A DNA stretch of 64,000 nt from Candidatus Moraniibacteriota bacterium (GTDB lineage Bacteria; Patescibacteriota; Minisyncoccia; Moranbacterales; UBA1568): contig JAGOTT010000001.1 in assembly GCA_018061645.1 (NCBI GenBank), positions 65,090-129,089 of the forward strand. Direction: 5' to 3'. Under the pieces are notes generated by a model, which saw only the letters and a list, made by a program, of their open reading frames with translations, did no database searches and was not told where the DNA came from. A program made the position numbers and the translations under genes. Position 1 is the stretch's first letter; each line of letters opens with the position of its first letter. This document shows, piece after piece, positions 8,985 to 57,802 of the stretch.

Positions 8985-10197
8985 GGCGTGGACAGCGATA
9001 CGGCGGGAGGGATTATTCTCCGGCGGGAAACGGGTATTTGGCGCGTTCCTTACATTGTTTCGCCGCGTCCATCCCGGGGATATCCTGTTTGTCACGAACG
9101 GGGTCGGGGACAGCGCCCGCTACCGCTGCGAGCATGTCGCGGAGGAGCTCCGTTTCCGCGGGTTTCGAACCGCTGTCACCGTGCAGGACAACCCGTTCCT
9201 TCCGTCGTATGCGGATCGGTTCGCGGTATTCGTCTTTCATCGCGTACTCTACACTCCGTCGGTCGCGAAACTCGTCGAGCGCATCAAGGAGCAGGGAAAG
9301 GAAATCATCTTCGAGACGGATGACCTCGTGTACGATCCCGCGTACCTCGTTCACATGGATTATTTCAAGGTCATGAATCCGCTCGAACGCAAGCTCTATG
9401 AACATGGTGTCGGCGGAGAGATTCTCGCCGACCCGTACGTGAAGGTGGCGACGACCACGACGACGTTCCTCGCCGACAAGCTTCGTGAGAGAGGGAAGCA
9501 GGTCTTTATCGTTCCGAACAAGCTTTCGGAAGCGGACGTGCGGATCGCCTCTGTCATTGCGAGCGAAGCGCGGCAATCCAGTCAGAAAAAGACTTCATGG
9601 ATTCCCGGGTCAAGCCCGAGGATGACAAATGATAAAATTACCCTCGCCTACTTCTCCGGGTCCGCGTCCCACAACAAGGACTTCGCGACCATCACCGGAC
9701 CCTTGCTTTCGATACTCGGGAAATATCCCGAGACGGAGCTTTTCATATATGGTCCGCTCGACCTCGACGCGCGGTTCGATGCATTCGGAGATCGCGTGAA
9801 AAAGGTTCCGTATACGCCGCGCGAAAAACATCTGGAGAATGTCGCTGCGACCGACGTCAATCTGGCACCGCTCGAGATTGGCAATCCCTTTTGCGAGTCG
9901 AAGTCGGAACTCAAATTCTTCGAAGCGGGGATATTCGGCGTACCGACGGTCGCCTCCGCTACCCGTACTTTCCGGGAAGCGATCGAGGACGGAGAAGACG
10001 GCTTCACGGCGGCCACGGATGCGGAATGGACAACCAAACTCGAAAAACTCATACTGGATCCCGCGTTGCGCGAAGAAATGGGAGAGAAAGCCCGTGCGAA
10101 GTCGCTTGAGAAATACGCGACGATGAACGCCAAGAACGAATCCTATTATCAGTATCTCATCGGCAAGATAGCGAAATCCATTCCTGCGTCATCCTGA
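8956..10197 (+). CDS. Glycosyltransferase (GT4-like) carrying an in-frame palindromic-repeat insertion
   Basis: start moved to ATG giving MKLFLVKIG; C-terminal GT motif FFEAGIFGVPTVAS; peptide SVIASEARQSSQKKTSWIPGSSPRMTNDK encoded by repeat 9552-9628. Confidence 0.75.
   Translation: MKLFLVKIGKAWTAIRREGLFSGGKRVFGAFLTLFRRVHPGDILFVTNGVGDSARYRCEHVAEELRFRGFRTAVTVQDNPFLPSYADRFAVFVFHRVLYTPSVAKLVERIKEQGKEIIFETDDLVYDPAYLVHMDYFKVMNPLERKLYEHGVGGEILADPYVKVATTTTTFLADKLRERGKQVFIVPNKLSEADVRIASVIASEARQSSQKKTSWIPGSSPRMTNDKITLAYFSGSASHNKDFATITGPLLSILGKYPETELFIYGPLDLDARFDAFGDRVKKVPYTPREKHLENVAATDVNLAPLEIGNPFCESKSELKFFEAGIFGVPTVASATRTFREAIEDGEDGFTAATDAEWTTKLEKLILDPALREEMGEKARAKSLEKYATMNAKNESYYQYLIGKIAKSIPASS
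9552..9628. repeat. Family-1 palindromic repeat element, in-frame inside GT gene
   Basis: tgtcattgcgagcgaagcgcggcaatccag ... ggattcccgggtcaagcccgaggatgacaa; first 33 nt identical to copy at 42815-42847. Confidence 0.8.
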
Positions 10198-10208
10198 TGC
10201 GGTGAAGG

Positions 10209-12634: not shown

Positions 12635-12679
12635 CCTCCTGCGCTATCCCAGCCGATACCTGTTCCCGCCCTTCTTCTG

Positions 12680-12706
12680 CTATTCTGAGCGTAGCGAAGA
12701 ATCCAG
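12680..12706. repeat. Family-1 repeat half-element (intergenic)
   Basis: ctattctgagcgtagcgaagaatccag. Confidence 0.6.
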
Positions 12707-12741: not shown

Positions 12742-13131
12742 ATGGAAAAAGATTTCGACGAGTGGAATTCGAAAAAGAAACAACTTGATGTTGTATCAAG
12801 GAAACTTCTTTTCAAGGAGGGTGAGATCTGGTGGTGCTCCATTGGCGTGAATGTCGGAGAGGAGGTTTATGGGAAAGGAGAATACTTCCGTCGTCCGGTC
12901 GTGATACTGCGGAAGCTCTCGGGGAATACCTGTATCGTCATGCCGACGACGACGCGGGAACGAAGTGGAAGCTGGTATCATCATCTGAATATCCGAAATA
13001 AGGACAGGTGGGTAATGATGAATCAGATTCGCCTTATTTCAGCGAACCGACTCTGGGTTCGTGAATCCACTTTGTCGAGAGAGGAATTTGAGGAATTAAA
13101 AAAGTCCGTAGCAGGACTGCTCGGACTTTGA
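12742..13131 (+). CDS. PemK/MazF-like endoribonuclease toxin (apparently solitary)
   Basis: 129 aa; GEIWWCSIGVNVGEE..RPVVIL and CIVMPTTTR / NQIRLISANRLW resemble PemK/Kid; no antitoxin ORF recognised nearby; low-GC surroundings. Confidence 0.55.
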   Translation: MEKDFDEWNSKKKQLDVVSRKLLFKEGEIWWCSIGVNVGEEVYGKGEYFRRPVVILRKLSGNTCIVMPTTTRERSGSWYHHLNIRNKDRWVMMNQIRLISANRLWVRESTLSREEFEELKKSVAGLLGL

Positions 13132-13255: not shown

Positions 13256-13290
13256 TTTTCATTCCGAGCGAGTTCTCGAGTCGAGAAATC
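13256..13290. repeat. Family-1 repeat unit (intergenic)
   Basis: ttcattccgagcgagttctcgagtcgagaaatc, same subtype as 25921-25955. Confidence 0.6.
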
Positions 13291-13292
13291 TG

Positions 13293-21433: not shown

Positions 21434-21477
21434 AGGAGGTTACGTAACCGGTTACGTAATAACCAGCGATACCACCT

Positions 21478-46118: not shown

Positions 46119-46153
46119 ATTTTTTCGAAGCCGTTTTTTCACCCGAAAAGTCT

Positions 46154-48397
46154 TCAGGGCATGAACGGATAGATCTTCACATACTGTCCCGGGCGGCCGT
46201 TGATGAGGAGTTCCCACTCGGCGCCATCGGTTTTTTCATAGTACTTGTCGAACCGGATGACGTCCTTGCGGAGATCGTCGACAGCGATCTTGACCCGTCC
46301 GGTAGTGCGGCTCTCCCGTCCGGAAGAGACGACGACATAATCGAACGTATCGTTTTGGTAGAGTTTCCAGTCGAAGTTGCTCCGGCAGATCCCGTCGAAG
46401 AATCGGCAGACGCCGTTCTTGTCGGTCCAGATGGTGAGATCCTTGGCATTCGGGAGGCTGTTGAGATACATCGCCGCCTCGTAGCTTCCGTCACCCATGT
46501 CTTTCACGTTCACGTATCGGTCCTGTGGGAGAAGCGTCGAGGCGTAGCTCATCGGGAACGGGGTATTCGAAAGCGAGACGAGCGAGGCGATGGCGATGCT
46601 GGTGAGGACCACCGGAAGAGCGGAAGCGAAACGGATTTTCGATACGAGCGTGCCGATGGCGATACCGGCGATGATTCCGGCGACGGGGTAGAGCATGATC
46701 TGATAGCGGGTTATGGCGCCGACGCCGTTCACCGAGCTTCCGAGGTGGTAGAGCGCGATGAAGACGATTCCGTAAAGCAGTGTTTTCCCGGCGGTCGTTC
46801 GTGAGAAAGCCGGGCGCACGAGGAGAAGTCCTCCGCCAAGAAAGAGTCCGGCGAAGACGATCGGAACGACTCCGAAGAGGAGCGGATAAAAATTCGTCGC
46901 GAAGACGCCGAAAAGCCCGGCGTCGAGATAGATGGTCTTCGGGGCGGAGAGAAGTGACTGGAAATCGTAGCGTGCCATGCCGGCCCACACGTTCCATGAG
47001 ACGAACGAGAGCATCCCGACCCAGAATGCCGCGATGGCGGCGGAAACCCATCGGCTCCGATTCCGGAAGAACCGCATGATCGTTTCGGAAAAACGGGATC
47101 TGTTTAGGAAACGGTCGATGGCGATGGCGGCGATGATCGAAAGGAAGATCGGCGCGGTGCTTACGAACGCCTGCGAGAGGATGGTCGCGTTCAGGAGTTT
47201 TTCCGGCCGAACCCAGGTCGCCGGAAAGAGTACGAAGAAGGTCGAGATCGCCCCGAACGTCCAGAGAGCGTAGGCGAGAAGCGATCGTTTGAGATATGGC
47301 AGGAACGGCCGGTCGCGTTTCATGAGCACATATTCGAGGAAGACGACCCCGAACATGAGGACGAAGAGGATATTTCCGACGTATTTCGTGAGAAGCACGA
47401 GTCCGAGAATCACCGCCGAGAGGAAAAGAAAGGCGATATGTCCCCGTTTCAGATAGGTGAGGTAGGCGAGGAACGAGAGCGGTGCGAAGACCCACAGGAG
47501 GGAATCGGGATTGACGATCTTCGTCATGCCGAGCGTGATCGGAGAGAGGATAATGAGCGGATACGTGACGAGCGCGATCGTCCGCCCGAGGAGCCGGTCG
47601 AGCAGGAAGTAGAAGAGAGGGAGGAATATCGCCGCGGCGATGACGATACCGATGCGGAACGAGAAGAAGAGCTGCTCGAGTCCGACATCGCTCCCATTCG
47701 TCCGTTTCCAGGCGACCGGGTCGCTTTCGTGGAGCAGTCCGGTGCCGCTCGCGAAGGCGATAGTCAGTCCGGGCTTGTCGCTGACGCTCGTCTTTCGGAA
47801 TTCGAGGTTTCCGAGGGATTCCCAATATTTCGGGATGCGGTCATGGATCCAGAGTGCTTCGTCGACCCCGGAGAATTTTCCGAGATCCTTCGTGGCGAAG
47901 AAAAGGAATACGAACGTGGTCGCGATGACGAACAGGATCGCGGGCGCTCCCTGTCGGCTGAACCATGCCCGAAGAGTCGGTTCCGGCACGGAAACATCAT
48001 GAATGACCGTCCATTCCTGCAGGATGAGTTTTCGGACAAGGAACATCGAGACGCCGAATGCGTAGAAGGTGACGGCGATCTTCGCGCTGGCGGGAATGTC
48101 GGCGTAGAGATTCCAGGCGAGGACGAAAGTGAGAATGGTCGGAAAGGTTGCAATGAACAATGCTTTGAAGACAGGGACGAATTTTCTTTCCGATACCGAA
48201 AAAAATACGGCTGCGCCGAGCGCAAGACCGAGCGTCGGAAGCGCGACGATGAATATCTCCCGAGGAAGCTCCGCAAGAGAGGCGGGAACCCAGGGAATGT
48301 GTCGTGCAATGAATACTCCGGCGACAAGTGCGAGTATCGCGGAAAGTGCGATGACTGTCGGGGTCGTTTTACCGGCGGCGGCACGGAATCGGTTCAT
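46154..48397 (-). CDS. GT-C fold membrane glycosyltransferase, GT39/ArnT/PMT-like
   Basis: 747 aa; loop motif GVDEALWIHDR; many TM helices and C-terminal soluble domain. Confidence 0.6.
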   Translation of the reverse strand: MNRFRAAAGKTTPTVIALSAILALVAGVFIARHIPWVPASLAELPREIFIVALPTLGLALGAAVFFSVSERKFVPVFKALFIATFPTILTFVLAWNLYADIPASAKIAVTFYAFGVSMFLVRKLILQEWTVIHDVSVPEPTLRAWFSRQGAPAILFVIATTFVFLFFATKDLGKFSGVDEALWIHDRIPKYWESLGNLEFRKTSVSDKPGLTIAFASGTGLLHESDPVAWKRTNGSDVGLEQLFFSFRIGIVIAAAIFLPLFYFLLDRLLGRTIALVTYPLIILSPITLGMTKIVNPDSLLWVFAPLSFLAYLTYLKRGHIAFLFLSAVILGLVLLTKYVGNILFVLMFGVVFLEYVLMKRDRPFLPYLKRSLLAYALWTFGAISTFFVLFPATWVRPEKLLNATILSQAFVSTAPIFLSIIAAIAIDRFLNRSRFSETIMRFFRNRSRWVSAAIAAFWVGMLSFVSWNVWAGMARYDFQSLLSAPKTIYLDAGLFGVFATNFYPLLFGVVPIVFAGLFLGGGLLLVRPAFSRTTAGKTLLYGIVFIALYHLGSSVNGVGAITRYQIMLYPVAGIIAGIAIGTLVSKIRFASALPVVLTSIAIASLVSLSNTPFPMSYASTLLPQDRYVNVKDMGDGSYEAAMYLNSLPNAKDLTIWTDKNGVCRFFDGICRSNFDWKLYQNDTFDYVVVSSGRESRTTGRVKIAVDDLRKDVIRFDKYYEKTDGAEWELLINGRPGQYVKIYPFMP

Positions 48398-48486
48398 GGA
48401 TATGGTTGCGTTCTCCGGTGGGAAGCGGTATACTTCCGAAAGAAGAAAGCTTTTAATAAGGCATTATTCTCTTTCACTCTATCACA

Positions 48487-50268
48487 ATGTCCGAAGAAAG
48501 GAAACCATTTTCCAGCCGTTTTTCGAGGCCGATTCTCATCCTGATCGCCATTCTCGCGTTTGGCGGGTTCCTTCGGCTGTATCATTTTTCCGACTGGCTC
48601 CACTTCGAACTCGACCAGGCGCGCGATGCGCGGGTCATCGACGAGGCACTTTCCGGGGGCCCTGGCGAGCTGACGCTTCTCGGCATGAAGGCCGGGGGAA
48701 CGTCGCTTCGGCTCGGTCCCGGGTTCTACTACCTTGAGTATCTTTCCGGGCTCGTTTTCGGTGCGACCCCGCAGGGGATAGCGATGATCATCCCTATCCT
48801 TTCGGTCGCCTCGATCGGGGTGTTTTACCTGTTCGCGCGGCGGTTTTTCGGGGTGTCGGTCTCGCTCGCGCTCGCGCTCCTTTTTTCCGTTTCCGAATAC
48901 CTGGTCATGTACGGGCGGTTCGCGTGGAATCCGAACCCGCTGCCGTTCTTCTCGCTCCTTGGATTCTATGCGTTGCTTCGGTCCGTTTCTCCGGATGAGC
49001 GGCGACCGGGACGGTGGTTTGTCCTATCCGCATTTTCCATCGGTCTCGCGACGCATCTCCATTTCCTCGCCTTCCTCTCGCTTCCGGTGGTCGCGGCGAT
49101 TTTTCTCCTCGTCCGTCGGCCGAGATTTTCCTCCAAGGCGTGGGCGGCGGCGTTCGCGGCGTTTATCGTGTTCTATGTTCCGGTCGTGCTCAACGAGATC
49201 GAGACCGGCGGTGCGAATTCCAGGGCGTTCCTTTCGGCAATCACCGAAAAATCATCGAAGACGACCCGGACGGCTCCGGAGAAACTTATCCGGAACATTA
49301 CCGAGCACGGACTGGGATATCTTACGATCCTGACGGGGATCGAGGACGGGGGATTCGCGGATGTCGACCTGCGTCGCGAGGGAGTGTTCCGTATCGAATG
49401 CGATGCGAGGTGCCAGGACGGGAAAGTCGTCGGATCCGTATCCATGGCCGCATTCGCGCTTTCCCTGATTTCTGCTTTTTATCTGTGGTTTCGAATCCGA
49501 GATCGGAGGCAGTCGGACGTACTGCTTTTGTCCGGGATATGGTTTCTGGTTGTCTTTTCCGTGCTTTTCCCGCTTGCGTACGGGTTCTCGCCGCGGTTCT
49601 TCCTTGCTGCCGCGCCGATACCGTTCCTCCTGCTTGGGTTCCTCTTGGAGGGCGCGCGCGCGGTGTTTCCGGGTCGGAAGTCTGTGATGTGGGTCGGAGC
49701 GGCGATACTCGCCATCTTTGTTGCATTGAACGTCTTCGGAGTCGCGGAACGGTTCCGCCAATCGTCGCTCGCGTTGACGGAGGCGGTAGACACTCCGGCG
49801 GATCGTATCCTCAAGGAAAAGATCCGTGTGCCGCTCGAGCAGCAGATGAAGATTGTTGATTATCTCAAGACGCGGTCGGATGAGCGGGGGTGGCCGGTGT
49901 ATATGCACAGTGAACCGGAACATCGGCGGGCGCTCAAGTATCTTCTCGAGCGACGCGGTGTGGAGAACGCCGGATTCGGATTGACGGGTATTTATGAAGA
50001 GGGGATCTATGTGCTCATTCTCCGATCGAAGTCGGATCTCTATGACGGAATGAAGAAGTATCTCGAGAAATATGATGTCGTCGAGAAACATTCCTTCGGG
50101 ACGCTCACGATGATAGAATTCCGACCGAAGGAAACGTCCATCGAGGCGAAGCGACAGGTCTTCGTTCCGCAAGGGAAGGTGCAGGATAACCCGACCGCGC
50201 TCCCGCGCTACACCTGGCGCGAATGGTGGGAGCGGAAGAATGATCCGGGGAATGATGAAGAAGAATAA
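48487..50268 (+). CDS. GT-C fold membrane glycosyltransferase, GT39/ArnT/PMT-like
   Basis: 593 aa; HFELDQARDARVIDEAL loop-1; YGRFAWNPNPLPFF; divergent from 46154..48397. Confidence 0.65.
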   Translation: MSEERKPFSSRFSRPILILIAILAFGGFLRLYHFSDWLHFELDQARDARVIDEALSGGPGELTLLGMKAGGTSLRLGPGFYYLEYLSGLVFGATPQGIAMIIPILSVASIGVFYLFARRFFGVSVSLALALLFSVSEYLVMYGRFAWNPNPLPFFSLLGFYALLRSVSPDERRPGRWFVLSAFSIGLATHLHFLAFLSLPVVAAIFLLVRRPRFSSKAWAAAFAAFIVFYVPVVLNEIETGGANSRAFLSAITEKSSKTTRTAPEKLIRNITEHGLGYLTILTGIEDGGFADVDLRREGVFRIECDARCQDGKVVGSVSMAAFALSLISAFYLWFRIRDRRQSDVLLLSGIWFLVVFSVLFPLAYGFSPRFFLAAAPIPFLLLGFLLEGARAVFPGRKSVMWVGAAILAIFVALNVFGVAERFRQSSLALTEAVDTPADRILKEKIRVPLEQQMKIVDYLKTRSDERGWPVYMHSEPEHRRALKYLLERRGVENAGFGLTGIYEEGIYVLILRSKSDLYDGMKKYLEKYDVVEKHSFGTLTMIEFRPKETSIEAKRQVFVPQGKVQDNPTALPRYTWREWWERKNDPGNDEEE

Positions 50269-50303
50269 GCAGAGGATACAAGAGACAAGAAATGCAACGT
50301 TGG

Positions 50304-50327
50304 AAGAAACAAGGTACAAGAAACAAG
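50304..50327. repeat. Left inverted repeat flanking four-helix-bundle gene D (aagaaacaaggtacaagaaacaag)
   Basis: 22/23 match to reverse complement of 50737-50760. Confidence 0.7.
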
Positions 50328-50351
50328 ATACAAAAAATCCGAAATACGAAA

Positions 50352-50723
50352 ATGACCGAAGTGAAACAAAAAGAGAAGAGATTTGACCTGGAGGAAAGGA
50401 CGTTGGAGTATTCGAAAAGAGTTCTCCGGTTGTGCAAAAGTCTCCCAAAGAATGGTATCAATCGGGAGATGGCTGATCAGCTGTTTCGTTCCGCAAGCTC
50501 CGTCGGGGCGAATTATCGGGAAGCGAACGACGCCCTTGGTAAGAAGGATTTTGTCATGAGGATAAAGATATCCAGAAAAGAAGCGAAGGAGGCCGAGTAT
50601 TGGTTGAAGCTGGTTGCGGAAGGTAATCCTGAAATGAAAGAAAAAATGAGTGGGCTTATCGATGAAACAAAGGAGCTGCGGATGATATTTTCTTCCATAA
50701 TAAGCAAGGTTTCAGTGAATTGA
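50352..50723 (+). CDS. Four-helix-bundle protein (23S rRNA IVS protein family)
   Basis: start at MTEVKQKEKRFDLEERTLEYSKRVL aligning with paralog 41672; LFRSASSVGANYREAN. Confidence 0.9.
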   Translation: MTEVKQKEKRFDLEERTLEYSKRVLRLCKSLPKNGINREMADQLFRSASSVGANYREANDALGKKDFVMRIKISRKEAKEAEYWLKLVAEGNPEMKEKMSGLIDETKELRMIFSSIISKVSVN

Positions 50724-50736
50724 TTTTTCGTGATTT

Positions 50737-50760
50737 TTGTTTCTTGTAACTTGTTTCTTG
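50737..50760. repeat. Right inverted repeat flanking four-helix-bundle gene D (ttgtttcttgtaacttgtttcttg)
   Basis: partner of 50304-50327. Confidence 0.7.
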
Positions 50761-52308
50761 ATGATTAACGCTATGAGCTTAAGGAAAACATTGGCAGTGC
50801 TGGCGGTCATCGTTCTGATTGGGGCAGTTCTGCGCTTCTGGGGGCTTGGGAATAATCCGTTCAATGCTGATGAGTTCCTCGATATCAACTCCGCCTACGG
50901 GTACGCGCAGACGGGGGAATGGAAGGCGTGGGATTTCAATTTCGGTCAGGTGTCGGAAGTCAATATCAACCAGGCGCGTGATGAGCGTGCGAACGTGTAC
51001 AAGTGGCAGGTGGCGCAGCTCTTCTCTTTCCTTCCGCCGACGGAAGCGGTCGCGCGGAGCGTGTCGGCGCTGTGGGGCGTGTTCTCGATTCTCGCGATGT
51101 TCTTTGCCGGGTGGATGTTTTCGGGAAAGAAACGGATCGGGCTCTTCGCGGCGGCACTCTTCGCCGTATCCGTTTCCGGGATCGAGTTCGATCGCAAGCT
51201 CCGCATGTACGCGATGTTCTTTCCGCTCTTCCTTCTCATGTCCGTGTCGCTTTTCGGTCTCTACGAGCGGGAATATAAGGGCAGGATAAAAGCGCTCCGG
51301 ACCTTCTGGGAGAAGACCGACCTGAACCCCGCGTATCTCCTCCCGCTTCTCGTATCCGGATATCTTTCCTTTCAGACGCACCAGTTGTCGATCAACATCA
51401 TCCCGATTTTCGCCGTCTATGTGGTAACGATGATCGTTCTCGCTTGGCGCAGGAAACGATCCGCCGAGGACAAGTATATGGGAACCGCGGCGCTGGGGCT
51501 GGTCGTCGCGATCGTCGCGTGGACCGCGGCGCCGGAGAAGATGAAGGAACTGCTCGGCGCACTCGTGCTCTTCGATAACCATTACTCGTATTTCCGCTAT
51601 GTCGTGCGTGACTACGCGCAGCCGATCCTTGCGGCGCTTCTCTTCGGGTATGGTGCGTGGCATCTCGTGAAAAAGCTCGGAAAAGAGAAAGAGACCGCGT
51701 GGCTGCTTGTCTCGTCGCTTGTGCCGCTTGTGATGGCGGTCTGGTTCTGGCGACGCAACGAGGGACAACAATACATCTTCTTCGCGCAGTCCTTCATGGC
51801 GATACTGGTCGCTTCCGGCGGATACGGGCTCGTGCGGTTCGTGAATGACGAGTTTTCGTCCCGATGGAAGCATGCCGTGTGCGCGGCGACGCTCCTCCTT
51901 GCGGTGCTCGTTCCGAATTGGGGATACTTTTTTTGGGAAAACAACACGTATCATGAGACATCGACGGGGAGTTCGGCGAACTACCGGAAGATCTACCAGT
52001 ATTTCCGCAACAATGCGGGCGATGGCGACGCGCTCATCGCGCGGAATTTCCGCAACTACTACTGGAGCGGTACGGAGACCAAGGTACTTGATTTCGGCGG
52101 GGAACTTTCTGTCTCAAAACTTTCGGTCGGGGAAATAGAGGCGTTCATGACGAAACATCCGACCGGTTGGTTCATCGCGTCGGACAACGACATGGATTAT
52201 GTTTCGCGCGATGCGGAAATATTCATCGGGAAAAATATGGAGCGGCAGAGCCATTCGCTCATCCGGGGGAACGTTGAAGTGTGGCGGTGGGGGAAAAATA
52301 GTCTGTAA
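50761..52308 (+). CDS. GT-C fold membrane glycosyltransferase, GT39/ArnT/PMT-like
   Basis: ATG after IR (track used TTG at 50737); loop-1 NPFNADEFLDIN (PMT DE motif); ~11 TM helices. Confidence 0.65.
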   Translation: MINAMSLRKTLAVLAVIVLIGAVLRFWGLGNNPFNADEFLDINSAYGYAQTGEWKAWDFNFGQVSEVNINQARDERANVYKWQVAQLFSFLPPTEAVARSVSALWGVFSILAMFFAGWMFSGKKRIGLFAAALFAVSVSGIEFDRKLRMYAMFFPLFLLMSVSLFGLYEREYKGRIKALRTFWEKTDLNPAYLLPLLVSGYLSFQTHQLSINIIPIFAVYVVTMIVLAWRRKRSAEDKYMGTAALGLVVAIVAWTAAPEKMKELLGALVLFDNHYSYFRYVVRDYAQPILAALLFGYGAWHLVKKLGKEKETAWLLVSSLVPLVMAVWFWRRNEGQQYIFFAQSFMAILVASGGYGLVRFVNDEFSSRWKHAVCAATLLLAVLVPNWGYFFWENNTYHETSTGSSANYRKIYQYFRNNAGDGDALIARNFRNYYWSGTETKVLDFGGELSVSKLSVGEIEAFMTKHPTGWFIASDNDMDYVSRDAEIFIGKNMERQSHSLIRGNVEVWRWGKNSL

Positions 52309-52348
52309 AGTCCGTAAAGTTTCGATCGGAAATACGGTGAAAAAATGA

Positions 52349-52378
52349 AAAACCCCGGCAGATTCCTGCGGGGGTTTT
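52349..52378. terminator. Bidirectional rho-independent terminator between convergent genes
   Basis: aaaaaccccggcagattcctgcgggggtttt. Confidence 0.55.
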
Positions 52379-52391
52379 CGGTTGGAGAGAA

Positions 52392-52694
52392 TTACGGATG
52401 ATTGTTCTGTCCGGCGCCGCCGTGCCCGATGACCCGGCATCCCGTCTTCGAGGCGAAGATCGACGGTTCGAAGGTCGCAATACTTGGTTTGCGTTTGTCC
52501 AGACAGACACAGTATGTCATGCCTCGGATGCGGCAGATACATTTTTCGCCACTTCCGACCATTCGTTGGATATGTACTTCGTTGTCGTCGATCTTTTCCA
52601 GATACGGCCTGCCGATCGTGTGACCCTTGGCGCGGACGATTTTTGCTATCGCTTCGAGTTCTATCGTTGAAACTTTTCGGGCTATTTTACCCAT
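52392..52694 (-). CDS. Small Cys-rich hypothetical protein
   Basis: 100 aa; ggag RBS upstream; CxC...CxC pattern; GC3 moderately high. Confidence 0.35.
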   Translation of the reverse strand: MGKIARKVSTIELEAIAKIVRAKGHTIGRPYLEKIDDNEVHIQRMVGSGEKCICRIRGMTYCVCLDKRKPSIATFEPSIFASKTGCRVIGHGGAGQNNHP

Positions 52695-52848
52695 TTTCCG
52701 TCTCCAAAAAAACTTTTAAAGTTTTAAAGAAAAAACACCCCTTTGAAGCCGACGCTCTGGCTCCGTTTCTTTATACCATTTTTTGGCCTTCATGTCAATC
52801 GCGCGTGCTTCGTGAAAGAAAAACCGCGCCGATTTTTGTCGGTGCGGT

Positions 52849-53142
52849 TCATGATCCGTTCTTCGTATCGCGGATCGTCTTTACGATACCGAATACGAGA
52901 TCCTGTCTTTTCCGGTCGGCGAGGAGGGCTATGCCTGGCGGGTCGGTATGGATACGGATGATCGCTTTCCAGGGGAGCGCTTCGATCTCTTCCGCGTACT
53001 CGGTCTTCCATCGTTCGAAAAGTGTGTTCTCGAGTCGTTCTGTCCGGGGCATTTTTTTCTTGCCGAGGACGAAATATCTGAAAGCTGAAAATACTTCGAA
53101 GAGAACCTGCTCCTTTCTTTTTTTAAAAGCGTGCGTTTCCAT
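52849..53142 (-). CDS. Hypothetical small protein (second gene of two-gene module)
   Basis: 97 aa from ATG with strong aaggagg RBS; overlapping + ORF looks spurious. Confidence 0.4.
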   Translation of the reverse strand: METHAFKKRKEQVLFEVFSAFRYFVLGKKKMPRTERLENTLFERWKTEYAEEIEALPWKAIIRIHTDPPGIALLADRKRQDLVFGIVKTIRDTKNGS

Positions 53143-53210
53143 AAGAACCTCCTTTTCTCGGAAAAAAATACCGCGTCCGTAGTTCCGGGCGCGGCTGGTG
53201 GCTGATGCTC

Positions 53211-53459
53211 TCAAGCGGCGATTTTCATCCGTTCGATGATCCGCTGAGAAAGCTGCTTGGACAAGATATGCTTGCCCTCGCCTTTGAGCGCGAAGTATTC
53301 GGTGACGACCTCGTGCGTTACCACCTCGTCGATCGCCTGGCTGTTCGTGTCGTACCAGTCGGAAAAGCCGCTATGGCCGTTCTGTTCCCGGTCGAGCTTG
53401 CAGCAGATGGTGGCGTAGATGAGGTCGAGCAGAATGATTCTTTTCTCCGAGGGGTTCAC
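53211..53459 (-). CDS. Hypothetical small protein (GTG start, first gene of two-gene module)
   Basis: 82 aa; GC3 ~85%; aggaga RBS 6 nt upstream of GTG. Confidence 0.5.
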   Translation of the reverse strand: MNPSEKRIILLDLIYATICCKLDREQNGHSGFSDWYDTNSQAIDEVVTHEVVTEYFALKGEGKHILSKQLSQRIIERMKIAA

Positions 53460-53558
53460 GGAAGTCTCCTAGTGTGTGAGTTGGTAAACCAACAAAAAAA
53501 GTCCTCATCGGACCTGTGGAGTATGACAGATTTCCCGTTTTCTGTCAAGGATTCCTGA

Positions 53559-53870
53559 TTGACGGGGGAACGGTTGTCGTGGTACAAGGAAGTGTCTTCA
53601 ATGACACAGAGAGAGGGTATCGGTATGCCGCTTATCTTCGCGGGTTTCGTTCTTTTGTTTCTGATAGCGGTCTTCGCTCCGTATGTCAACGCTATCGCGG
53701 CGACATTCATCATCGCCGGCCGGTTGGTCGTCGCTTTTTTCATCAGCCTCATTCCTCTGGGCTTCCTGATTGTTTCCATCGTGGCGGTGTATCTCGGGTT
53801 TCAGGATATGCGTCGGGAGCTTCGGAGACCGAGGCGCCGAGTCGGTTCCGACGGCTTCGAAGATTTTTGA
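53559..53870 (+). CDS. Small 2-TM membrane protein, hypothetical
   Basis: start probably at internal Met (MPLIFAGF...); weak. Confidence 0.35.
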   Translation: MTGERLSWYKEVSSMTQREGIGMPLIFAGFVLLFLIAVFAPYVNAIAATFIIAGRLVVAFFISLIPLGFLIVSIVAVYLGFQDMRRELRRPRRRVGSDGFEDF

Positions 53871-53906
53871 TGCCATTCAGGCGGGTGCCGATGTACCCGC
53901 CTTTTT

Positions 53907-55379
53907 TCATGCTTGCGACTTATTCTTCGTGAAGAGTTTCCGGATCGGGTTCAGGTCGGATTCCTTCAGTTCCTTTGCCAGGAAAAGCGGGAGATAGTAG
54001 AGGACGAATAGGAATGCTCCGGAGAAGATGAATGATACGGGCTCGGAGGGGAGTATTTTCGAGAGGAGCGCGATGCCTGTCGCGGAGACAAGGGAAACGA
54101 CCCAGAGCCTCGTCGAGAGACGGACGGAGAAATGTCGCTCGGTATAGATGAGGATGGCGATCATGAGGATGAACGAGACGAGTGTGGTGGCGCCTGCCGC
54201 ACCGACGATACCGAAAGGAGGGATGAGTGCGAAATTGAGGACGAGTGCGAGCAGTACGCCGAACCCCGAGAGTTTCATCGGGATTTTCACCAGTCCGGCG
54301 CCGTTGAGCGCGAAGGCGAGGACGTAGAAGACCGTGAGGAACCCGGCGCCTACGGCGAATACGCTCATCGCGGATGCCGCGCCGAGGTAGTGGTCGCCGT
54401 AGAAGAGATGGAGGATCGGTTCGGCATAGACGGCAAGCAGCGTGACGAACGGAAAGAGGAGAAACGCCATGAGGCGGAGTGATTTCTCTACGAGCTCCCG
54501 CGTCTTTTCCGGTCCCTGGTCGGCGTTGCTTTTCGCGATCGCCGGAACCATCATGACCGCGAGCGCGTAAAAAAGGTAGTAGGGGATGCGCCCCATGGTG
54601 ATGGCGGCGTTGTAGAGACCCGTCGCGATGTCATCCCGGAGGAGCGCCTGCACGAGATACAGGTCGAGTGTGAGGACGAGCTCGTAGAAGACGAGGAAGA
54701 GCGTGAACGGCCAGGCGTATGAGAGCAGGAGTTTTCCGGGGAATGTGAAGTCCTGCCCCGGTTCCTGCGGGAAGGATTTTTTCGTGATGATCCAGTCGGC
54801 GACGAGACCGACGAAGAAGACCGAGAGCGGTGCCAGGATGTAACCGGAAACCGATCCCGGGAGACCGAAGAGGAACGCGAGCCCGACGATGAAGAACAGA
54901 CGCGCGAAGGAGCGGATGATCTTGAGCGTCGCCTGGAAGCGGAAATAGTGGAGTCCGTTGAAATAGTGGAGATAAAAGGACGCGGCGGCGAAGGCGGGAA
55001 TGATGAGTGAGGAAAGCGCGAAAAGCGAAGCCAGCTCCGGGTCGCCGAGAAGCTGGGCGATGAGCGGGGAAGCGAGAAAGAATATCACGGTGAGGCTCCC
55101 CATGATGAGCGCCTGGAGTCTCATACCGACCCGCTTGATGACCGGAACCTTCCAGGGGGCGTTTTCGAAGACTTCGGAGAGGTATTTCGACATCGCGGTC
55201 GGGAGGCCGTTTCCGACGAGTACGATGATCATGGTCGTGAGCGTGATGACGAGCCCGTAGCGACCGTAGTCGGCGGGACCGAGAATCCGTCCGACGGAGG
55301 CGTGGACGATGTAGCTCGCGATATTGAAGACGATCTCGGAAGCGGTGAGCCACACGAGTGCGCGTGAGAAGTTTTTCAT
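53907..55379 (-). CDS. Oligosaccharide flippase (Wzx-like, MOP superfamily)
   Basis: 490 aa, 12-14 TM; N-terminal GRILGPADYGRYGLV motif. Confidence 0.75.
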   Translation of the reverse strand: MKNFSRALVWLTASEIVFNIASYIVHASVGRILGPADYGRYGLVITLTTMIIVLVGNGLPTAMSKYLSEVFENAPWKVPVIKRVGMRLQALIMGSLTVIFFLASPLIAQLLGDPELASLFALSSLIIPAFAAASFYLHYFNGLHYFRFQATLKIIRSFARLFFIVGLAFLFGLPGSVSGYILAPLSVFFVGLVADWIITKKSFPQEPGQDFTFPGKLLLSYAWPFTLFLVFYELVLTLDLYLVQALLRDDIATGLYNAAITMGRIPYYLFYALAVMMVPAIAKSNADQGPEKTRELVEKSLRLMAFLLFPFVTLLAVYAEPILHLFYGDHYLGAASAMSVFAVGAGFLTVFYVLAFALNGAGLVKIPMKLSGFGVLLALVLNFALIPPFGIVGAAGATTLVSFILMIAILIYTERHFSVRLSTRLWVVSLVSATGIALLSKILPSEPVSFIFSGAFLFVLYYLPLFLAKELKESDLNPIRKLFTKNKSQA

Positions 55380-55619
55380 AAGCCCATTCTATCGGAAATC
55401 GTCGGAAAAAGAAAAAACCGTTCTATCCGGACGGTTTTCATGTGTGGGTGGAAACGGAAATCCGGGGGACGGTATAGGTCGGAACCATGAAGAGAAATTC
55501 GCCCGGCATCGGCTGATGCCTCCACGCGCGGCCTCGTCTTCCGCTTGTGGATCACCGTTCGCCCGAATCGCCGTTTCCGGGGGAGATGATAGGGTAAATG
55601 CAGGCATCTGTCAATAGGC

Positions 55620-56255
55620 TCAGGGTAATTCGACGGTTTTTCGGATCTCGTCGGCAATGACTTCTTTCGGCCCATCCGCGTCGATGACGACCATGTTCCA
55701 GTCGGAGACCATTTTCTTGAAGAGATCTGTTTTGGCATGGAGATATTCCTCGCCCTGCTCCGGGGCGCGCTCGCGGCCCATGATGACTCCCGGGTCGATG
55801 TCGAAATATAAGGCGATATCAGAAACAGGTAACAAATAGCAGATAACAGATAGCAAAAGACCCCGTTTCCTGTTTCCTGTTGACTGTTCACCGTTGGCTG
55901 ATCGGAGGTATTCGATATTGATAATCGAGTCGTAGAACGAACGGTCGGAAAGCAGATAGTCGAAATGCTCTTTCCTGAGTTTGCGGAGGAGAAGTCGGAA
56001 GCGGAGAAAATCGAGGAAGAGAAATTTCTCCCGCAGGACTATAGAACACCAGGAAGCCTTCGTGACAGCCTTTTCTTTCCCGGGTTCGAATTTTTGTACT
56101 CCTCTGAAAAGCCGCGCGATCCGGTTCGCGTACGAAAACTCGACCGCGTTGAATACGGCGACTTTCTTATCTCTGCCTTCAAGGTATTCTTTGAGGAGCG
56201 CGAGCTGGGTGCTCTTGCCGCTCCCATCCACACCGGAAAGAGTGATATATCTCAT
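55620..56255 (-). CDS. tmk: Thymidylate kinase with in-frame family-2 palindromic insertion
   Basis: MRYITLSGVDGSGKSTQ P-loop, SDRSFYDS, LYFDIDPGV; ~25 aa insert NGEQSTGNRKRGLLLSVICYLLPVSD encoded by repeat 55820-55895. Confidence 0.65.
   Translation of the reverse strand: MRYITLSGVDGSGKSTQLALLKEYLEGRDKKVAVFNAVEFSYANRIARLFRGVQKFEPGKEKAVTKASWCSIVLREKFLFLDFLRFRLLLRKLRKEHFDYLLSDRSFYDSIINIEYLRSANGEQSTGNRKRGLLLSVICYLLPVSDIALYFDIDPGVIMGRERAPEQGEEYLHAKTDLFKKMVSDWNMVVIDADGPKEVIADEIRKTVELP
55820..55895. repeat. Family-2 palindromic repeat inside tmk
   Basis: gaaacaggtaacaaatagcagataacag...ccccgtttcctgtttcctgttgactgttcaccgtt; arms gaaacagg/cctgtttc. Confidence 0.65.
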
Positions 56256-56293
56256 ATGCGCAGGGTAGCAAAAAGTGCTAGTATAAGCAATGT

Positions 56294-57802
56294 ATGGGAT
56301 TTCAAAAACTCTCAAAATACGCGTTTTTCTCCTTTCTCTTCCTCCTCCCGTTTCAGACGGTGCTTTTGCTGCGCGAGCCGATTATGGCCGGGGAGAAGTG
56401 GCAGTACGGAACGATCGGATTGTATGGAACGGATATTTTGTTGTTAGCAGCGCTTGTCTTTCATTTGTCATCCCGAGCGCAGTCGAGGGATCTTCATATG
56501 AAATGGCGGATTCCTCGATTCGCGGACTCGCTCGGAATGACAGAAGGGATACTCATCCTCTTCCTTTTGTGGGTGGGAGCGTCTGTCTTCTGGGCGACCG
56601 ATACGGTGCTCGCCGGATATTTTTTTGCGAAGCTGCTTCTCGGAGCGGGGGTGTTCTTCCTTGCGCGGTCACTTGATGATACGGGTGTGGGAATGGCGGT
56701 GAAAGTCCTGCTTGCGGCGGCGGTCATCCAGGTGCTGATCGGGATCGGGCAATTCCTGTATCAGACGGCGCCCGCGTCGACTCTGCTCGGGATGAGTGCG
56801 CATGAAGCGTGGACTGCGGGGACGTCCGTCTTGAAGCTGGAAGAAGGACGCTTCCTCCGCGCGTACGGATCATTCCCACACCCGAATATGCTTGGGGGAT
56901 TCTTGGCAGCGGTTTTCGTATTGGGTATTTCGTATTTGGTATCTGGTATCAAAACCATCTCTGTCATTGCGAGCGTAGCGAAGCAATCCAGGGAGAAGGA
57001 TCTTAGCCAAACACTTTCTGGATTGCCACGGGTTCGAAGACTCACCCTCGCAATGACGGCGGAGTGGGCTGGTGTGCTGATCATCCTCCTTGCTCTCATC
57101 CTCACGTTTTCCCGAGCCGCATGGCTCGGTGTAGCGATGGGAATCGTCGCGTATTGCGTATTTCGTATCCTGTATCCCTCCCATCAGACAAAATCAAAAT
57201 GTATCATAATTCCACGGCCGTGGAATTATGATACATTTTTCAAGACGATGTTCGTTCTGGGGATAGCGACGGCGGTGTTCGTGTTCGTGCTCCGTGACCA
57301 GGTGTTTCCGCGGTTCGACACGGCGGCAATCGAACGGGAAGGGTCGGTGTCGGAGCGGGTCGTGTCGCTTCGGGACGCGAAGACACTCATTGTAGAACAT
57401 CCGATCATCGGGGTCGGCGCGGGCAGCTTCACGAAAGCGATCATGGAAAACGAGCCGGATCGTCCGGTGTGGAGCGTCCAGCCGGCGCATGATGTCTTCG
57501 TTCTTGTCTGGGCGGAGCTGGGAGTGGTTGGAGCTGTGCTGTTCGTGGTGTTTTTTCTTTCTGTCATCGCGAGCGTAGCGTGGCGATCCAGAAATCAGGA
57601 AAAGAGTCTGGATTGCCACGGAGGCGAAACGCCTCCTCGCAATGACAGGGGAGTGGGTTTGGTGTTGGGAAATCAATCCATCATCTTTGCGATAGCATTT
57701 CTTACGCTTCTCCCGGGTCTCCTCCTCGACCATTGGCTCTGGTCGTCGCACTTCGGGTTATTGTTTTTCTTCCTACTGGCAGGATTTTCGAACAGAAAAT
57801 GA
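56294..57802 (+). CDS. O-antigen ligase/polymerase family (Wzy_C-like) membrane protein with three in-frame palindromic insertions
   Basis: 502 aa; LTFSRAAWLGVAMGIVAY motif; repeats at 56466-56542, 56962-57057, 57562-57647 keep frame. Confidence 0.65.
   Translation: MGFQKLSKYAFFSFLFLLPFQTVLLLREPIMAGEKWQYGTIGLYGTDILLLAALVFHLSSRAQSRDLHMKWRIPRFADSLGMTEGILILFLLWVGASVFWATDTVLAGYFFAKLLLGAGVFFLARSLDDTGVGMAVKVLLAAAVIQVLIGIGQFLYQTAPASTLLGMSAHEAWTAGTSVLKLEEGRFLRAYGSFPHPNMLGGFLAAVFVLGISYLVSGIKTISVIASVAKQSREKDLSQTLSGLPRVRRLTLAMTAEWAGVLIILLALILTFSRAAWLGVAMGIVAYCVFRILYPSHQTKSKCIIIPRPWNYDTFFKTMFVLGIATAVFVFVLRDQVFPRFDTAAIEREGSVSERVVSLRDAKTLIVEHPIIGVGAGSFTKAIMENEPDRPVWSVQPAHDVFVLVWAELGVVGAVLFVVFFLSVIASVAWRSRNQEKSLDCHGGETPPRNDRGVGLVLGNQSIIFAIAFLTLLPGLLLDHWLWSSHFGLLFFFLLAGFSNRK
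56466..56542. repeat. Family-1 palindromic element in O-antigen-ligase-like gene
   Basis: tgtcatcccgagcgcagtcgagggatc ... ggattcctcgattcgcggactcgctcggaatgaca. Confidence 0.8.
56962..57057. repeat. Family-1 palindromic element in O-antigen-ligase-like gene
   Basis: tgtcattgcgagcgtagcgaagcaatccag ... ctggattgccacgggttcgaagactcaccctcgcaatgac. Confidence 0.85.
57562..57647. repeat. Family-1 palindromic element in O-antigen-ligase-like gene
   Basis: tgtcatcgcgagcgtagcgtggcgatccag ... ctggattgccacggaggcgaaacgcctcctcgcaatgaca. Confidence 0.85.

Follow-up and report, generated by a model that had tools for sequence, protein, structure and literature searches.

TGTC/CGTC-tagged hairpin repeats lie in frame inside glycosyltransferase and O-antigen-ligase-like genes of a Candidatus Moraniibacteriota bacterium

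Rickettsia palindromic elements, RPE-1 to RPE-8, were reportedly described by Ogata et al. in 2000 and 2002. The classic case, RPE-1, is about 100-150 bp long and is not a CGTC unit. GTAG REPs and REPINs are mobilised by RAYT (HUH Y1) transposases. MITEs have terminal inverted repeats and target-site duplications and are derived from insertion sequences, and the dRS3 repeats of Neisseria are targets for prophage integration and rearrangement.

The CGTC-tagged REPs, for which a TGTC or CCTC tag is also allowed, were catalogued by Di Nocera, De Gregorio, and Rocco (2013, BMC Genomics 14:522; PMC3733652). According to the parts of that paper drawn on here, their stems begin with AT and have 8-9 bp with loops of 4-5 nt, a CCA tail follows, HH dimers predominate, TT dimers are rare, and there is no transposase. 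The copies are mostly extragenic with some intragenic units, and they come from five phyla, the Candidate Phyla Radiation (CPR) being absent. In the same parts, R. conorii RPE-6 and RPE-4 are assigned to CGTC-1 and CGTC-4, respectively, and Neisseria dRS3 to CGTC-1.

The window analysed here is a 64-kb stretch of DNA from a Candidatus Moraniibacteriota bacterium. In the original prediction, RPE-like palindromes were placed in frame inside four of its genes, which are as follows.

8956-10197, plus strand: GT1-like gene for a GT-B fold glycosyltransferase with a Glyco_trans_1 C-terminal domain
24892-26655, minus strand: GT-C/PMT/DUF2142 membrane glycosyltransferase gene
42107-43429, plus strand: GT4 glycosyltransferase gene, intact per NCBI annotation (P0001)
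56294-57802, plus strand: gene for a Wzy_C / O-antigen-ligase-like membrane protein

The predicted repeat family is real. Its core motif TGTCATTSYGAGCG (at most one mismatch) matches the window 19 times against 0.14 times expected from shuffles, and none of 100 shuffles reached 19 matches. An independent repeat search of the window recovered the same family (repeats D1, D2, D4, D6, D7, D9, and D10; I1, I2, I4, I6, and I13). A covariance model trained only on copies from other phyla and viral contigs detected 17 window copies at E < 0.01, the best having an E of 1.8e-14. Curated Rfam RNA families gave no match in the window at gathering score. The 25 units lie at 14 loci and take the form of singles, six tag-outward (HH) dimers, and two head-only fragments, as listed below (z, folding as single-stranded DNA).

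9552-9627: HH heterodimer in the GT1-like gene; 9552-9580 (plus) is TGTCATTGCGAGCGAAGCGCGGCAATCCAG, 9596-9627 (minus) is a CGTC-3-like GGGCTTGACCC hairpin approximating the CGTC form (8-9 bp stem, 4-5 nt loop); encodes SVIASEARQSS..SWIPGSSPRMT in a loop that is shorter in most homologues
12678-12705, plus strand: single intergenic unit with degenerate tag TGCT; E 1.1e-7 (covariance model); 43 nt 3′ of a dehydratase-like gene and 36 nt 5′ of mazF
13257-13292, plus strand: single intergenic unit with degenerate tag TTTC and long loop GAGCGAGTTCTCGAGTCGA; E 0.03; D6, I2
25000-25093: three-unit group in GT-C; 25000-25027 (plus), then an abutted HH heterodimer, 25038-25065 (plus) and 25066-25093 (minus); z -6.55; encodes, in the GT-C frame, IVIPSLSRNLGILRYAQNDK..TGFFATLRMT
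25311-25347, plus strand: single unit with a 20-nt loop in GT-C; E 0.31; encodes WIAAVAVLPRNDK
25680-25729, plus strand: head-only fragment 25680-25700 followed by full unit 25701-25729 in GT-C; D9; encodes TRSLDYARDDRKEARNDK
25849-25958, plus strand: head-only fragment 25849-25869, full unit 25870-25897, and long-loop unit 25923-25958 in GT-C; encodes VDSSTRKLARNDK...TGFFATLRMTDGGLGMT
34237-34263, minus strand: single intergenic CGTC-1-type unit between asnB and the next gene; TGTC-ATTCCCGC-GAAG-GCGGGAAT-CCAG; z -5.40; E 0.004
37914-37949 and 37957-37985, minus strand: two tandem intergenic units, 9-45 nt 5′ of the start codon of a GT2 gene (37995-38756, minus); I1, I13
42817-42908: HH heterodimer in GT4; 42817-42845 (plus) and 42864-42908 (minus, 32-nt loop); z -4.40; encodes SVIASEARQSS-EKGKG-LDRHASGEDVGARDDR
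56466-56542: HH heterodimer in Wzy_C, site 1; z -3.15; encodes LSSRAQSRDL..RIPRFADSLGMT
56962-57058: HH dimer in Wzy_C, site 2, with a CGTC tag on the right-hand unit; z -2.55; encodes SVIASVAKQSR..SGLPRVRRLTLAMT
57562-57647: HH dimer in Wzy_C, site 3; z -6.90; encodes SVIASVAWRSR..LDCHGGETPPRNDR
57866-57912, minus strand: single long-loop intergenic unit between the convergent Wzy_C and rtcB genes, 8 nt from the rtcB stop codon; E 1.4e-5

A palindrome of 75-120 bp had been taken as the element. The basic unit is instead a hairpin of 26-47 nt, and the long palindromes are dimers, 56 nt in length where both units abut and 76-97 nt in the other five. Each unit consists of a pyrimidine-rich leader of about 8 nt, TGTCAT as the tag and stem start, a 5-bp stem, a variable loop, and a CCAG-like tail. 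The tag is unpaired and lies at one end; it is TGTC in 22 of the 25 window units, CGTC in one, and degenerate in two, and positions 0-5 carry 1.5-2.1 bits each. The main-class stem begins with A-T/T-A pairs followed by three inner pairs that covary; AT...AT is found in every full window unit, and among 50 external units the A-U and U-A pairs are present in 49 and 50, respectively. Units of this class have a GAG...(C)GA internal loop, which is closed off either by a small GCG-N-AGC hairpin or by a longer insert of variable sequence. In the majority class, the 5 bp are followed by a G.A/A.G interruption, another 2-3 bp, and a loop of 3 nt; alternatively, the loop spans 11-35 nt. The tail consensus is C(C/T)(A/C)G, with CCAG 3′ of the arm in ATTGC/ATCGC units and the CGTC-1-like unit and CCCG or CTCG in the remaining units. 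The window has six HH dimers and no TT dimer; pooled with all external loci, 117 HH dimers were found.

These features place the units close to the CGTC REPs, with which they share the tag, the A-T/T-A stem start, the CCA-type tail, HH pairs that are often heterodimeric, and in-frame copies. Unit 34237-34263, with its 8-bp stem and 4-nt loop, fits CGTC-1 exactly, and Neisseria dRS3 is thus of the same type; dRS3 copies are clustered and intergenic, and no role in integration or rearrangement is visible for the window units. An HH dimer of Novosphingobium (N. aromaticivorans), CGTCATTGCGAGCG..GCGAAGCAATCCAG, has nearly the same sequence as the main class and the same architecture. Compared with the CGTC REPs in the parts of PMC3733652 drawn on here, the main class differs in its 5-bp stem, its G.A/A.G interruption, and its loops, which are GNA-type triloops or reach about 35 nt, and the window differs in its CPR host and in that about three quarters of its units are intragenic. 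Head-only fragments and the pyrimidine-rich leader are likewise not described for CGTC REPs in those parts. Like the GTAG REPs and REPINs, the window units are short hairpins with an unpaired terminal tetranucleotide, occur as singlets and inverted doublets, vary in the stem in a structure-preserving manner, and show no visible target duplication. Unlike GTAG REPs, they carry a TGTC/CGTC tag and have no RAYT in the window.

The likeness to RPEs, as originally predicted, turned out to be more than an analogy, since RPE-6 and RPE-4 are themselves CGTC units in the cited text and the peptide LDSRFRGND, listed there for R. conorii CGTC-1 inserts, is also encoded by an orthologue of the GT-C gene; the link to a named RPE family is indirect. 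In both systems, palindromic repeats lie in frame in genes of a reduced genome and add peptides at tolerated positions. Unlike Rickettsia, an alphaproteobacterial intracellular parasite, the host here belongs to the CPR, and individual loops of its membrane glycosyltransferases have accumulated several unit types and dimers. The remark that such behaviour is rarely documented elsewhere was overstated, because intragenic copies in several species were already reported in those parts of the 2013 paper. The family and its intragenic copies are therefore known; what is new is the CPR host, the high intragenic fraction, and a breadth wider than reported.

Nineteen of the 25 units lie in the four predicted genes, which serve glycan assembly and all remain open (GT1-like, 2; GT-C, 9; GT4, 2; Wzy_C, 6). 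The other six are intergenic (12678, 13257, 34237-34263, 37914-37949, 37957-37985, and 57866-57912). The intergenic copies predicted at 12680, 13256, 34239, and 37913 were found, but the list was incomplete, lacking the copy at 57866-57912. By a crude ORF test, the intragenic fraction is about 76-81% here versus about 10% in other phyla. The reading frame is kept without stop codons in nine of nine insert blocks (chance about (1/3)^9), and the inserts as encoded lengthen the proteins by 10-36 residues per site. The GT-C host has 587 residues, compared with about 482-490 in most orthologues. Judging from the preserved frames, the host genes are probably translated through the inserts.

Are these segments mobile DNA or parts of the proteins proper? 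When the host proteins were aligned with homologues, the repeat-coded blocks fell, in all four, in loops that are short or missing in most homologues. The blocks lie between hydrophobic segments and have a net charge of 0 to +4. On the structure model of GT4, the insert sits between a helix and a strand at low confidence (pLDDT 44-52). Peptides such as SVIAS..., ...RNDK, and ...LRMT do recur, and the rtcB gene (57921-59420) adjoins Wzy_C, which would suit a conserved protein motif or domain, or segments spliced from the mRNA by an endonuclease and RtcB ligation and never translated. However, the DNA of the unit is read in four or more combinations of frame and orientation and is present outside genes as well, the blocks are missing from most homologues, and the inserted peptides have no match in Pfam or NCBIfam. 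The protein-motif reading is thus refuted by the sequence, and removal from RNA gives no reason for nine stop-free blocks that keep the frame; taken together, this explanation is scarcely credible. The claim of mobile DNA rather than a protein motif was therefore supported. As also predicted, identical 33-nt arms are shared by non-homologous genes (9550-9582 and 42815-42847).

The stems are maintained by compensatory changes. Of the 20 exact heads in the window, 18 are matched by a complementary arm of their own, while an arm fitting a different stem variant (six variants occur) turned up in just 26 of 408 tests. Among heads from other genomes, 510 of 632 are likewise matched by their own arm. 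Among the 50 external units, 99.4% of cells pair versus 91.5 ± 0.7% in shuffles, cells changed on both stem sides number 39 versus 10.9, and slid controls give 14-56%. The dimers fold well as single-stranded DNA (z -2.5 to -6.9), and HH dimers can form one long REPIN-like hairpin; many main-class single units are thermodynamically weak with DNA nearest-neighbour parameters (z -0.3 to -1.7).

The same unit also occurs in many other genomes. The main unit is present in at least 14 bacterial phyla, one Nanoarchaeota MAG, IMG/VR viral contigs, prophage records, and plasmids, and its sequence of about 26-27 nt is strongly conserved across those phyla. Such conservation, together with the covariation that preserves the stem, may indicate hairpins kept for a cellular function, either as RNA or DNA signals (3′-end stabilisers, attenuators, or supercoiling sites) or as recombination targets like dRS3, the intragenic copies being a by-product or a means of tuning glycan gene expression. 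For four of the six intergenic copies, the distance to a gene end is no more than 45 nt, about 90% of the copies in other phyla are outside long ORFs, and Di Nocera et al. argue, in the parts of PMC3733652 drawn on here, that many REPs act as RNA elements 3′ of genes. On the other hand, close relatives differ in their copies and most orthologues lack them, which means that the cell does not depend on any single copy; intragenic copies occur in both orientations, and head-only fragments have no hairpin. As the main explanation, function is unlikely, although function and selfish spread are compatible with each other.

The relatives point to turnover. Syntenic loci of Moranbacteria differ in the presence or absence of repeats and can have different unit types in one loop. 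At the GT4 site, relatives have no insert, the insert of the window, or other unit types; one relative (L245) has a left flank identical to that of the window with a different unit type. The spacer of the GT4 dimer looks like ancestral loop sequence, so the two arms may have arrived separately and not as one element. Repeated occupation of the same loops could also be gene conversion between copies, not new insertions. The relatives searched gave no filled/empty pair with nearly identical surroundings, and thus the exact insertion boundaries and the absence of a target-site duplication are not proven. The mobility of the units is supported indirectly by comparison of sequences: by presence and absence, by the recurrence of the 56-nt dimer of 25038-25093, with four differences, in the Wzy_C gene of another genome, and by wide dispersal.

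No transposase, integrase, or HUH enzyme was found among about 55 ORFs of the window, and about 2 Mb flanking more than 500 external units revealed no recurrent neighbour gene and one weak RAYT/IS200-like match. This would suit spread with no dedicated enzyme, by template switching during replication or repair plus gene conversion, with stable mini-hairpins seeding copies; the parts of PMC3733652 drawn on here also have no linked transposase. Such a process explains how one unit type replaces another at one site, as between the window and L245, the tandem head-only arrays look like slippage products, and target duplications were not seen. It does not account for copies reaching sites that have no repeat in relatives and no donor nearby, for the invariant, unpaired TGTCAT tag, or for the near identity of units from distant phyla, phage-like contigs, and plasmids, and I consider it quite unlikely. 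The 56-97 nt dimers might alternatively be MITEs that arose by deletion from an insertion sequence with TGTCA... inverted ends and are moved by a DDE transposase. Like Correia/NEMIS, Nezha, and Coxiella QMITE1/2, the repeats are small and non-autonomous and may overlap an ORF or extend it. The dimers have inverted ends and the size of a MITE, and unrelated genes share at least one dimer type. However, many units stand alone and form hairpins with covarying stems by themselves, dimer partners are often different unit types, and no matching parent insertion sequence was found in the window or the flanks. Direct repeats were not seen at the flanks of the six dimers. A MITE origin is very improbable.

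Most probably, then, the units are non-autonomous hairpin repeats of the TGTC/CGTC-tagged REP superfamily, which also holds Rickettsia RPE-4 and RPE-6, Neisseria dRS3, and the alphaproteobacterial CGTC REPs, copied in trans and then sorted by selection. Much as GTAG REPs are copied by RAYT, the hairpin would be copied as single-stranded DNA by an enzyme working in trans, with the tag as its cleavage or recognition site and without a target duplication. Selection would purge insertions that break a frame or a folded domain, and the survivors would be in-frame copies in tolerant loops of a gene-dense, reduced genome. This mechanism of mobilisation is an inference.

A bolder and rather doubtful extension is that the hairpin of about 26 nt, TGTCAT-NNN-GAGCGNAGCGA-N′N′N′-ATC, has been spread by an unrecognised enzyme and is rewriting envelope-glycan loops in CPR bacteria. 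The enzyme might be a near-universal host DNA-processing protein or a phage-borne one. It is suggested by the near-identity of the hairpin in at least 14 phyla, the CPR, a DPANN MAG, phage-like contigs, and plasmids with no linked transposase. If true, selfish DNA would become a source of protein-loop variation in CPR bacteria with almost no spare DNA, and phylogenetic profiling could track down the enzyme, given how few genes CPR bacteria have.

The ...RNDK, ...LRMT, and VIAS... strings and the length variation in CPR glycosyltransferases and O-antigen-ligase-like proteins originate from repeat DNA, which matters for annotation, orthology calls, and structure prediction. The repeat family is far wider than the five phyla given in the 2013 text (PMC3733652), yet its mobilising enzyme is not known; a search for it could well begin in CPR genomes, where candidate genes are few. 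The finding extends Rickettsia-type selfish palindromes inside working genes to the CPR, a lineage unrelated to Rickettsia that likewise has small genomes and depends on hosts, and this parallel supports the idea that gene-dense reduced genomes push repeats into protein loops.

It was found that the motif TGTCATTSYGAGCG, with at most one mismatch, occurs 19 times in the window, where 0.14 occurrences would be expected; a count of 19 was reached in 0 of 100 shuffles. Looser and structure-aware scans, together with flank alignment and a repeat finder, gave 25 units at 14 loci. The repeat family reported in the original prediction is therefore real. No Rfam model matched a unit in the window at gathering thresholds. 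The units are listed below by the first base of the tag, read on the unit's own strand; head-only fragments have no hairpin.

9552 (+) and 9627 (−): two units
12678 (+): one unit
13257 (+): one unit
25000 (+), 25038 (+) and 25093 (−): three units
25311 (+): one unit
25680 (+) and 25701 (+): a head-only fragment and a unit
25849 (+), 25870 (+) and 25923 (+): a head-only fragment and two units
34263 (−): one unit
37949 (−) and 37985 (−): two units
42817 (+) and 42908 (−): two units
56466 (+) and 56542 (−): two units
56962 (+) and 57058 (−): two units
57562 (+) and 57647 (−): two units
57912 (−): one unit

A unit consists of the TGTC tag, a stem A-T-N-N-N, a loop opening with GAG, the arm N′N′N′-A-T, and a tail that is mostly CCAG or CCCG. 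Flank alignment placed the start of the conserved stretch 2 nt before the tag (T-Y-TGTCAT), with a pyrimidine-rich segment from −9 to −3. The loop is 11–12 nt in the commonest class (GAGCG-N-AGCGA) and up to about 35 nt in others. The apical GCG-N-AGC resembles the d(GCGNAGC) mini-hairpin, which is very stable. When heads were defined from the 5′ half alone, 18 of 20 exact heads in the window had their own complementary arm downstream, while arms fitted another of the six stem variants found there in only 26 of 408 tests; outside the window, the own partner was present for 510 of 632 heads (240 loci from other organisms). The unit stem covaries: in an alignment of 50 external units of the 26-nt class, picked by the 5′ arm only, 99.4% of cells are paired (91.5 ± 0.7 when shuffled), 39 cells are altered on both sides (10.9 when shuffled), and pairing falls to 14–56% when the partner is slid. 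As single-stranded DNA, single units fold weakly to strongly (z +0.5 to −5.4), and the six HH dimers, in which the tags of two units point outward, fold as long hairpins (z −1.2 to −6.9; five at −2.5 or lower, the GT1 dimer at −1.2). The idea that units are built stop-free was dropped, the effect being modest: open frames make up 75%, compared with 67% after shuffling.

Di Nocera, De Gregorio and Rocco (2013; PMC3733652) described CGTC-tagged REPs, whose tag may be TGTC, whose stem opens with AT and whose tail is CCA. In that description HH (tags-outside) dimers prevail, often as heterodimers, copies also lie within genes, no transposase is associated, and five phyla are covered, with no CPR among them. 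CGTC-1 was equated with R. conorii RPE-6 and Neisseria dRS3, and CGTC-4 with RPE-4; the supplement gives the coded peptides SFPRKRES..DSRFRGND and VIAGLDPAIH..ARVKPGHD (PMC3733652). These peptides match unit types of the window and of its orthologues. Since CGTC-1 and CGTC-4 have been equated with RPE-6 and RPE-4 and the peptides match, the likeness to Rickettsia palindromic elements (RPE) drawn in the original prediction is right and is probably in part true homology, by an indirect link, with insert peptides in common. The window repeats are TGTC/CGTC-tagged REPs, probable relatives of RPE-4 and RPE-6, in a CPR bacterium; the source organism belongs to the CPR lineage Candidatus Moranbacteria. 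Both the family and its in-frame behaviour were already known, and the CPR host is new relative to the 2013 description. Literature searches on CPR with palindromic in-frame insertions found nothing relevant, and searches by unit sequence strings found primer coincidences only.

Records of Helicobacter canis prophages contain the main unit of the window at 100% identity over 28–31 nt (blastn). In a prophage of Helicobacter sp., a Mu-like transposase gene holds a 94%-identical copy in frame (locus L250, BK070154.1, 2501–2534, coding ..WIASLMLAMT..), which shows that prophage genes of Campylobacterota hold intragenic copies. Further matches at 91–100% identity were found in Novosphingobium, Methylobacterium, Legionella and Aulosira plasmids, with at least 40 places in one Novosphingobium replicon. 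In N. aromaticivorans, the copy forms an HH dimer built like those of the window.

Pfam matches identify the window as a cell-envelope glycan cluster. Inside it, 19 units lie within four ORFs, all of which are still open:

8956–10197: GT-B glycosyltransferase (GT1-like), 2 units
24892–26655: GT-C/PMT/DUF2142 membrane transferase, 9 units
42107–43429: GT4 enzyme, 2 units
56294–57802: Wzy_C protein, 6 units

The intragenic units are read in both orientations and in several frames. One strand codes for SVIAS..., LSSRAQS... or IVIPS..., the opposite strand for ...(R/Q)(N/D)D(K/R) or ...L(R/G/A)MT; predicted junction-spanning peptides include ILSPSVIASEAR and AQNDKIGTGFF. The one reverse frame bearing TGA is used by no intragenic copy. 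Two host proteins are intact by NCBI annotation (P0001, P0241). The insert blocks lie between hydrophobic segments with a net charge of 0 to +4; where positive, this charge predicts that the loops of GT-C and Wzy_C face the cytoplasm. The inserted peptides match no NCBIfam or Pfam family, and no RPE domain model turned up in those searches. The sites fall in loops; in the AlphaFold model of the GT4 enzyme (mean pLDDT 82.8), the insert is predicted at pLDDT 44–52 between helix 222–234 and strand 272–278. Six units are intergenic, four of them within 45 nt of a gene end. A MazF/PemK toxin gene (12742–13131) has single units on either side, at 12678 and 13257.

Are the blocks insertions or protein motifs? 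Judged from orthologue sequences, they are insertions, being short or absent in most relatives of all four hosts. The GT4 site is empty in 11 of 21 orthologues; one has the same insert, and the rest have other repeat-coded peptides, e.g., VIPAKAGIQ..RVKPGMT, SLDCARDDK and ARNDN. Its DNA has four states across seven loci (L numbers denote loci compared with the window): empty in L001 and L244, the same dimer with substitutions in L002, a dimer of a CGTC-1 and a CGTC-3-type unit with an identical left flank in L245 and L246, and one reversed unit in L243. The GT-C protein has 587 residues versus the usual 482–490, and its four insert regions are all absent from most orthologues. The three Wzy_C sites are all short or absent in most orthologues, and some have other units there. 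In the GT1-like protein, the block occupies a loop that most relatives have in a form 15–25 residues shorter; in one of them the loop holds a separate pair of units. Hallmark peptides occur in 7–16% of the best 120 homologues in three families versus about 2% in reversed-sequence controls. The original interpretation of the feature was correct. Of the precise in-frame insertion that it proposed, the frame is kept in 9 of 9 blocks; no filled/empty DNA pair clean enough to give exact boundaries was found. In L001 and L244, the nearest empty alleles, the flanks of the loop have diverged, and a 12.4-kb stretch 97.7% identical to a JGI contig has no unit differences. Intergenic DNA compared 3′ of the LPG-synthase gene did not align, and the pairs from an all-against-all blastn among 250 loci were all at 86–90% identity with messy indels. 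No direct repeats flank the six dimers.

The 12.4-kb stretch (43386–55804 against JGI 3300056789 Ga0558720_00605, covering L245 and L247) has syntenic flanks of 83–93% identity, and is a recombination or transfer mosaic inside the glycan cluster. Orthologue loops of Wzy_C and GT-C (alignments A2 and A3) have other recurring strings, DLRFTI(D/F)E..SKIFNQKS, GSGTFF..KKVPDPF and IQDAGCKMQ..SFIIYH, which look as if they are repeat-coded too. These strings suggest that loops of CPR membrane proteins are colonised by several families of short repeats, unrelated to one another. A perfect 44-nt palindrome within Wzy_C (57196–57239; AAAATGTATCATAATTCCACGG/CCGTGGAATTATGATACATTTT) is a second coding palindrome, unrelated to the units. 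Of the aligned Wzy_C orthologues, about half have its peptide, CIIIPRPWNYDTFF, and the others lack it; elsewhere, its DNA core was found only in L247 and L248, in the corresponding part of the gene, and viral contigs yielded none.

Syntenic relatives have units at other places, e.g., past the GT4 stop codon, past the LPG-synthase gene, and between the GT2 and UDP-glucose dehydrogenase genes. The 56-nt abutted dimer at 25038–25093 (GT-C) recurs with four differences within Wzy_C of L248, from another Moranbacteria assembly; since the two genes are unrelated, this dimer at least behaves as a single piece. Two metagenome scans gave no match to it. The two head-only fragments of the window consist of TGTCATNNNGAGC and about 8 pyrimidine-rich nucleotides, followed by the next unit. 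Such fragments recur in other phyla, some of them tandemly arrayed. Head-only fragments number at least 20 and tail-only ones about 6, which suggests a polarity from the tag end, as a lead rather than a result.

The units are structure-constrained hairpins, with dimers, in-frame copies in loops and differences among relatives. By analogy with RAYT and GTAG REPs, a trans-acting enzyme recognising the tag and stem would copy them via a single-stranded hairpin intermediate, and, the genome being gene-dense, purifying selection would then spare only copies that are in frame and located in loops. Such enzymatic copying is weakened, because no mobilising gene was found among about 55 ORFs of the window (Pfam), no neighbour gene recurs in about 2 Mb round external copies, and phmmer with three RAYT/IS200-type queries from Di Nocera's supplement gave one weak match in the external flanks. 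When 1,976 ORFs taken from 242 loci with units were clustered, only phage structural genes of related viral contigs grouped together. Template switching or gene conversion is a live alternative, especially where one unit type replaces another, and the different unit types behind an identical flank at the GT4 site speak for it. It is rather unlikely that the hairpins are functional as RNA 3′ structures or recombination targets, which would leave the dispensability of individual copies unexplained.

Three small PF05635 genes lie amid the glycan genes:

39898–40260: PF05635 gene 1, flanks 39810–39840 and 40284–40314
41672–42043: PF05635 gene, flanks ~41630–41665 and ~42060–42100
50292–50723: PF05635 gene, flanks 50304–50337 and 50726–50759

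PF05635 is the "23S rRNA intervening-sequence protein", a bAvd-like four-helix bundle. For two genes the flanks are imperfect inverted repeats of about 30 nt by the repeat finder, and for the third by eye only. Of the three, the one that separates the UDP-glucose dehydrogenase gene from GT4 is present in L244, L246 and the window and missing from L002 and L243. These genes look like mobile gene cassettes. In L002, a CGTC dimer takes the place of gene 1 in the interval bounded by GT2 and the UDP-glucose dehydrogenase gene. A general link between PF05635 and the units was rejected because only 1 of 240 external loci has a PF05635 gene. CTGTTGACTGTTAATTGTT-type sequence flanks gene 1 and also occurs as solo copies at other gene boundaries (window 24860–24902, 34195–34230 and 55870–55912; L002 8586–8648), one of which adjoins the CGTC-1 unit at 34237–34263. 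A/C-rich low-complexity DNA at 43340–43431 and in the C-termini of GT4 orthologues codes for tails, e.g., KDPNKTQTTKLKTDRSE and EPKSNHQGNPDDQ, that vary among orthologues; comparable A/C-rich and G/T-rich runs make up the inverted repeats round the PF05635 genes. An exact 40-nt direct repeat (19683–19722 and 21394–21433) brackets an AbiEi/AbiEii toxin–antitoxin pair (cassette 20016–21304; GC 0.43), which looks to have inserted with duplication of the GT2 gene 3′ end. Two low-GC islands (0.39–0.43 versus about 0.55), 28000–32000 with UDP-galactopyranose mutase, GT4 and methyltransferase genes and 20000–22000 with the AbiE pair, were probably gained by the cluster through horizontal transfer.

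How widespread are the units? The pattern TGTCATYSYGAGCGNAG-N3-6-RSRATC found more than 120 stretches in IMG/VR and more than 120 in GTDB species genomes. The 80 genome loci listed include Nitrospirota, Firmicutes, Desulfobacterota, Alpha-, Beta- and Gammaproteobacteria, Chloroflexota, Acidobacteriota, Bacteroidota (including Ignavibacteria and Rhodothermales), Gemmatimonadota, Nitrospinota, Planctomycetota, Verrucomicrobiota, three CPR groups and one Nanoarchaeota MAG. This breadth, like the intragenic share given below, goes beyond the 2013 description. Built on external copies alone, a model reached 50.8 bits (E 1.8e-14) for the best window copy. About 25 unit-bearing viral contigs of IMG/VR (among L003–L122) have capsid, portal and scaffold-like genes in common; thus, one phage group carries units repeatedly. 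Phages may be vectors of the spread across phyla. By a crude ORF test, 81% of units in the window lie deep in long ORFs, as do 56% in related Moranbacteria loci (a value biased upward because these were fetched via host genes); viral contigs reach 20% and other phyla 10%. The units are unusually concentrated within envelope glycan assembly genes. An old question becomes more tractable with a CPR host, a very broad distribution and an enzyme that is still missing.
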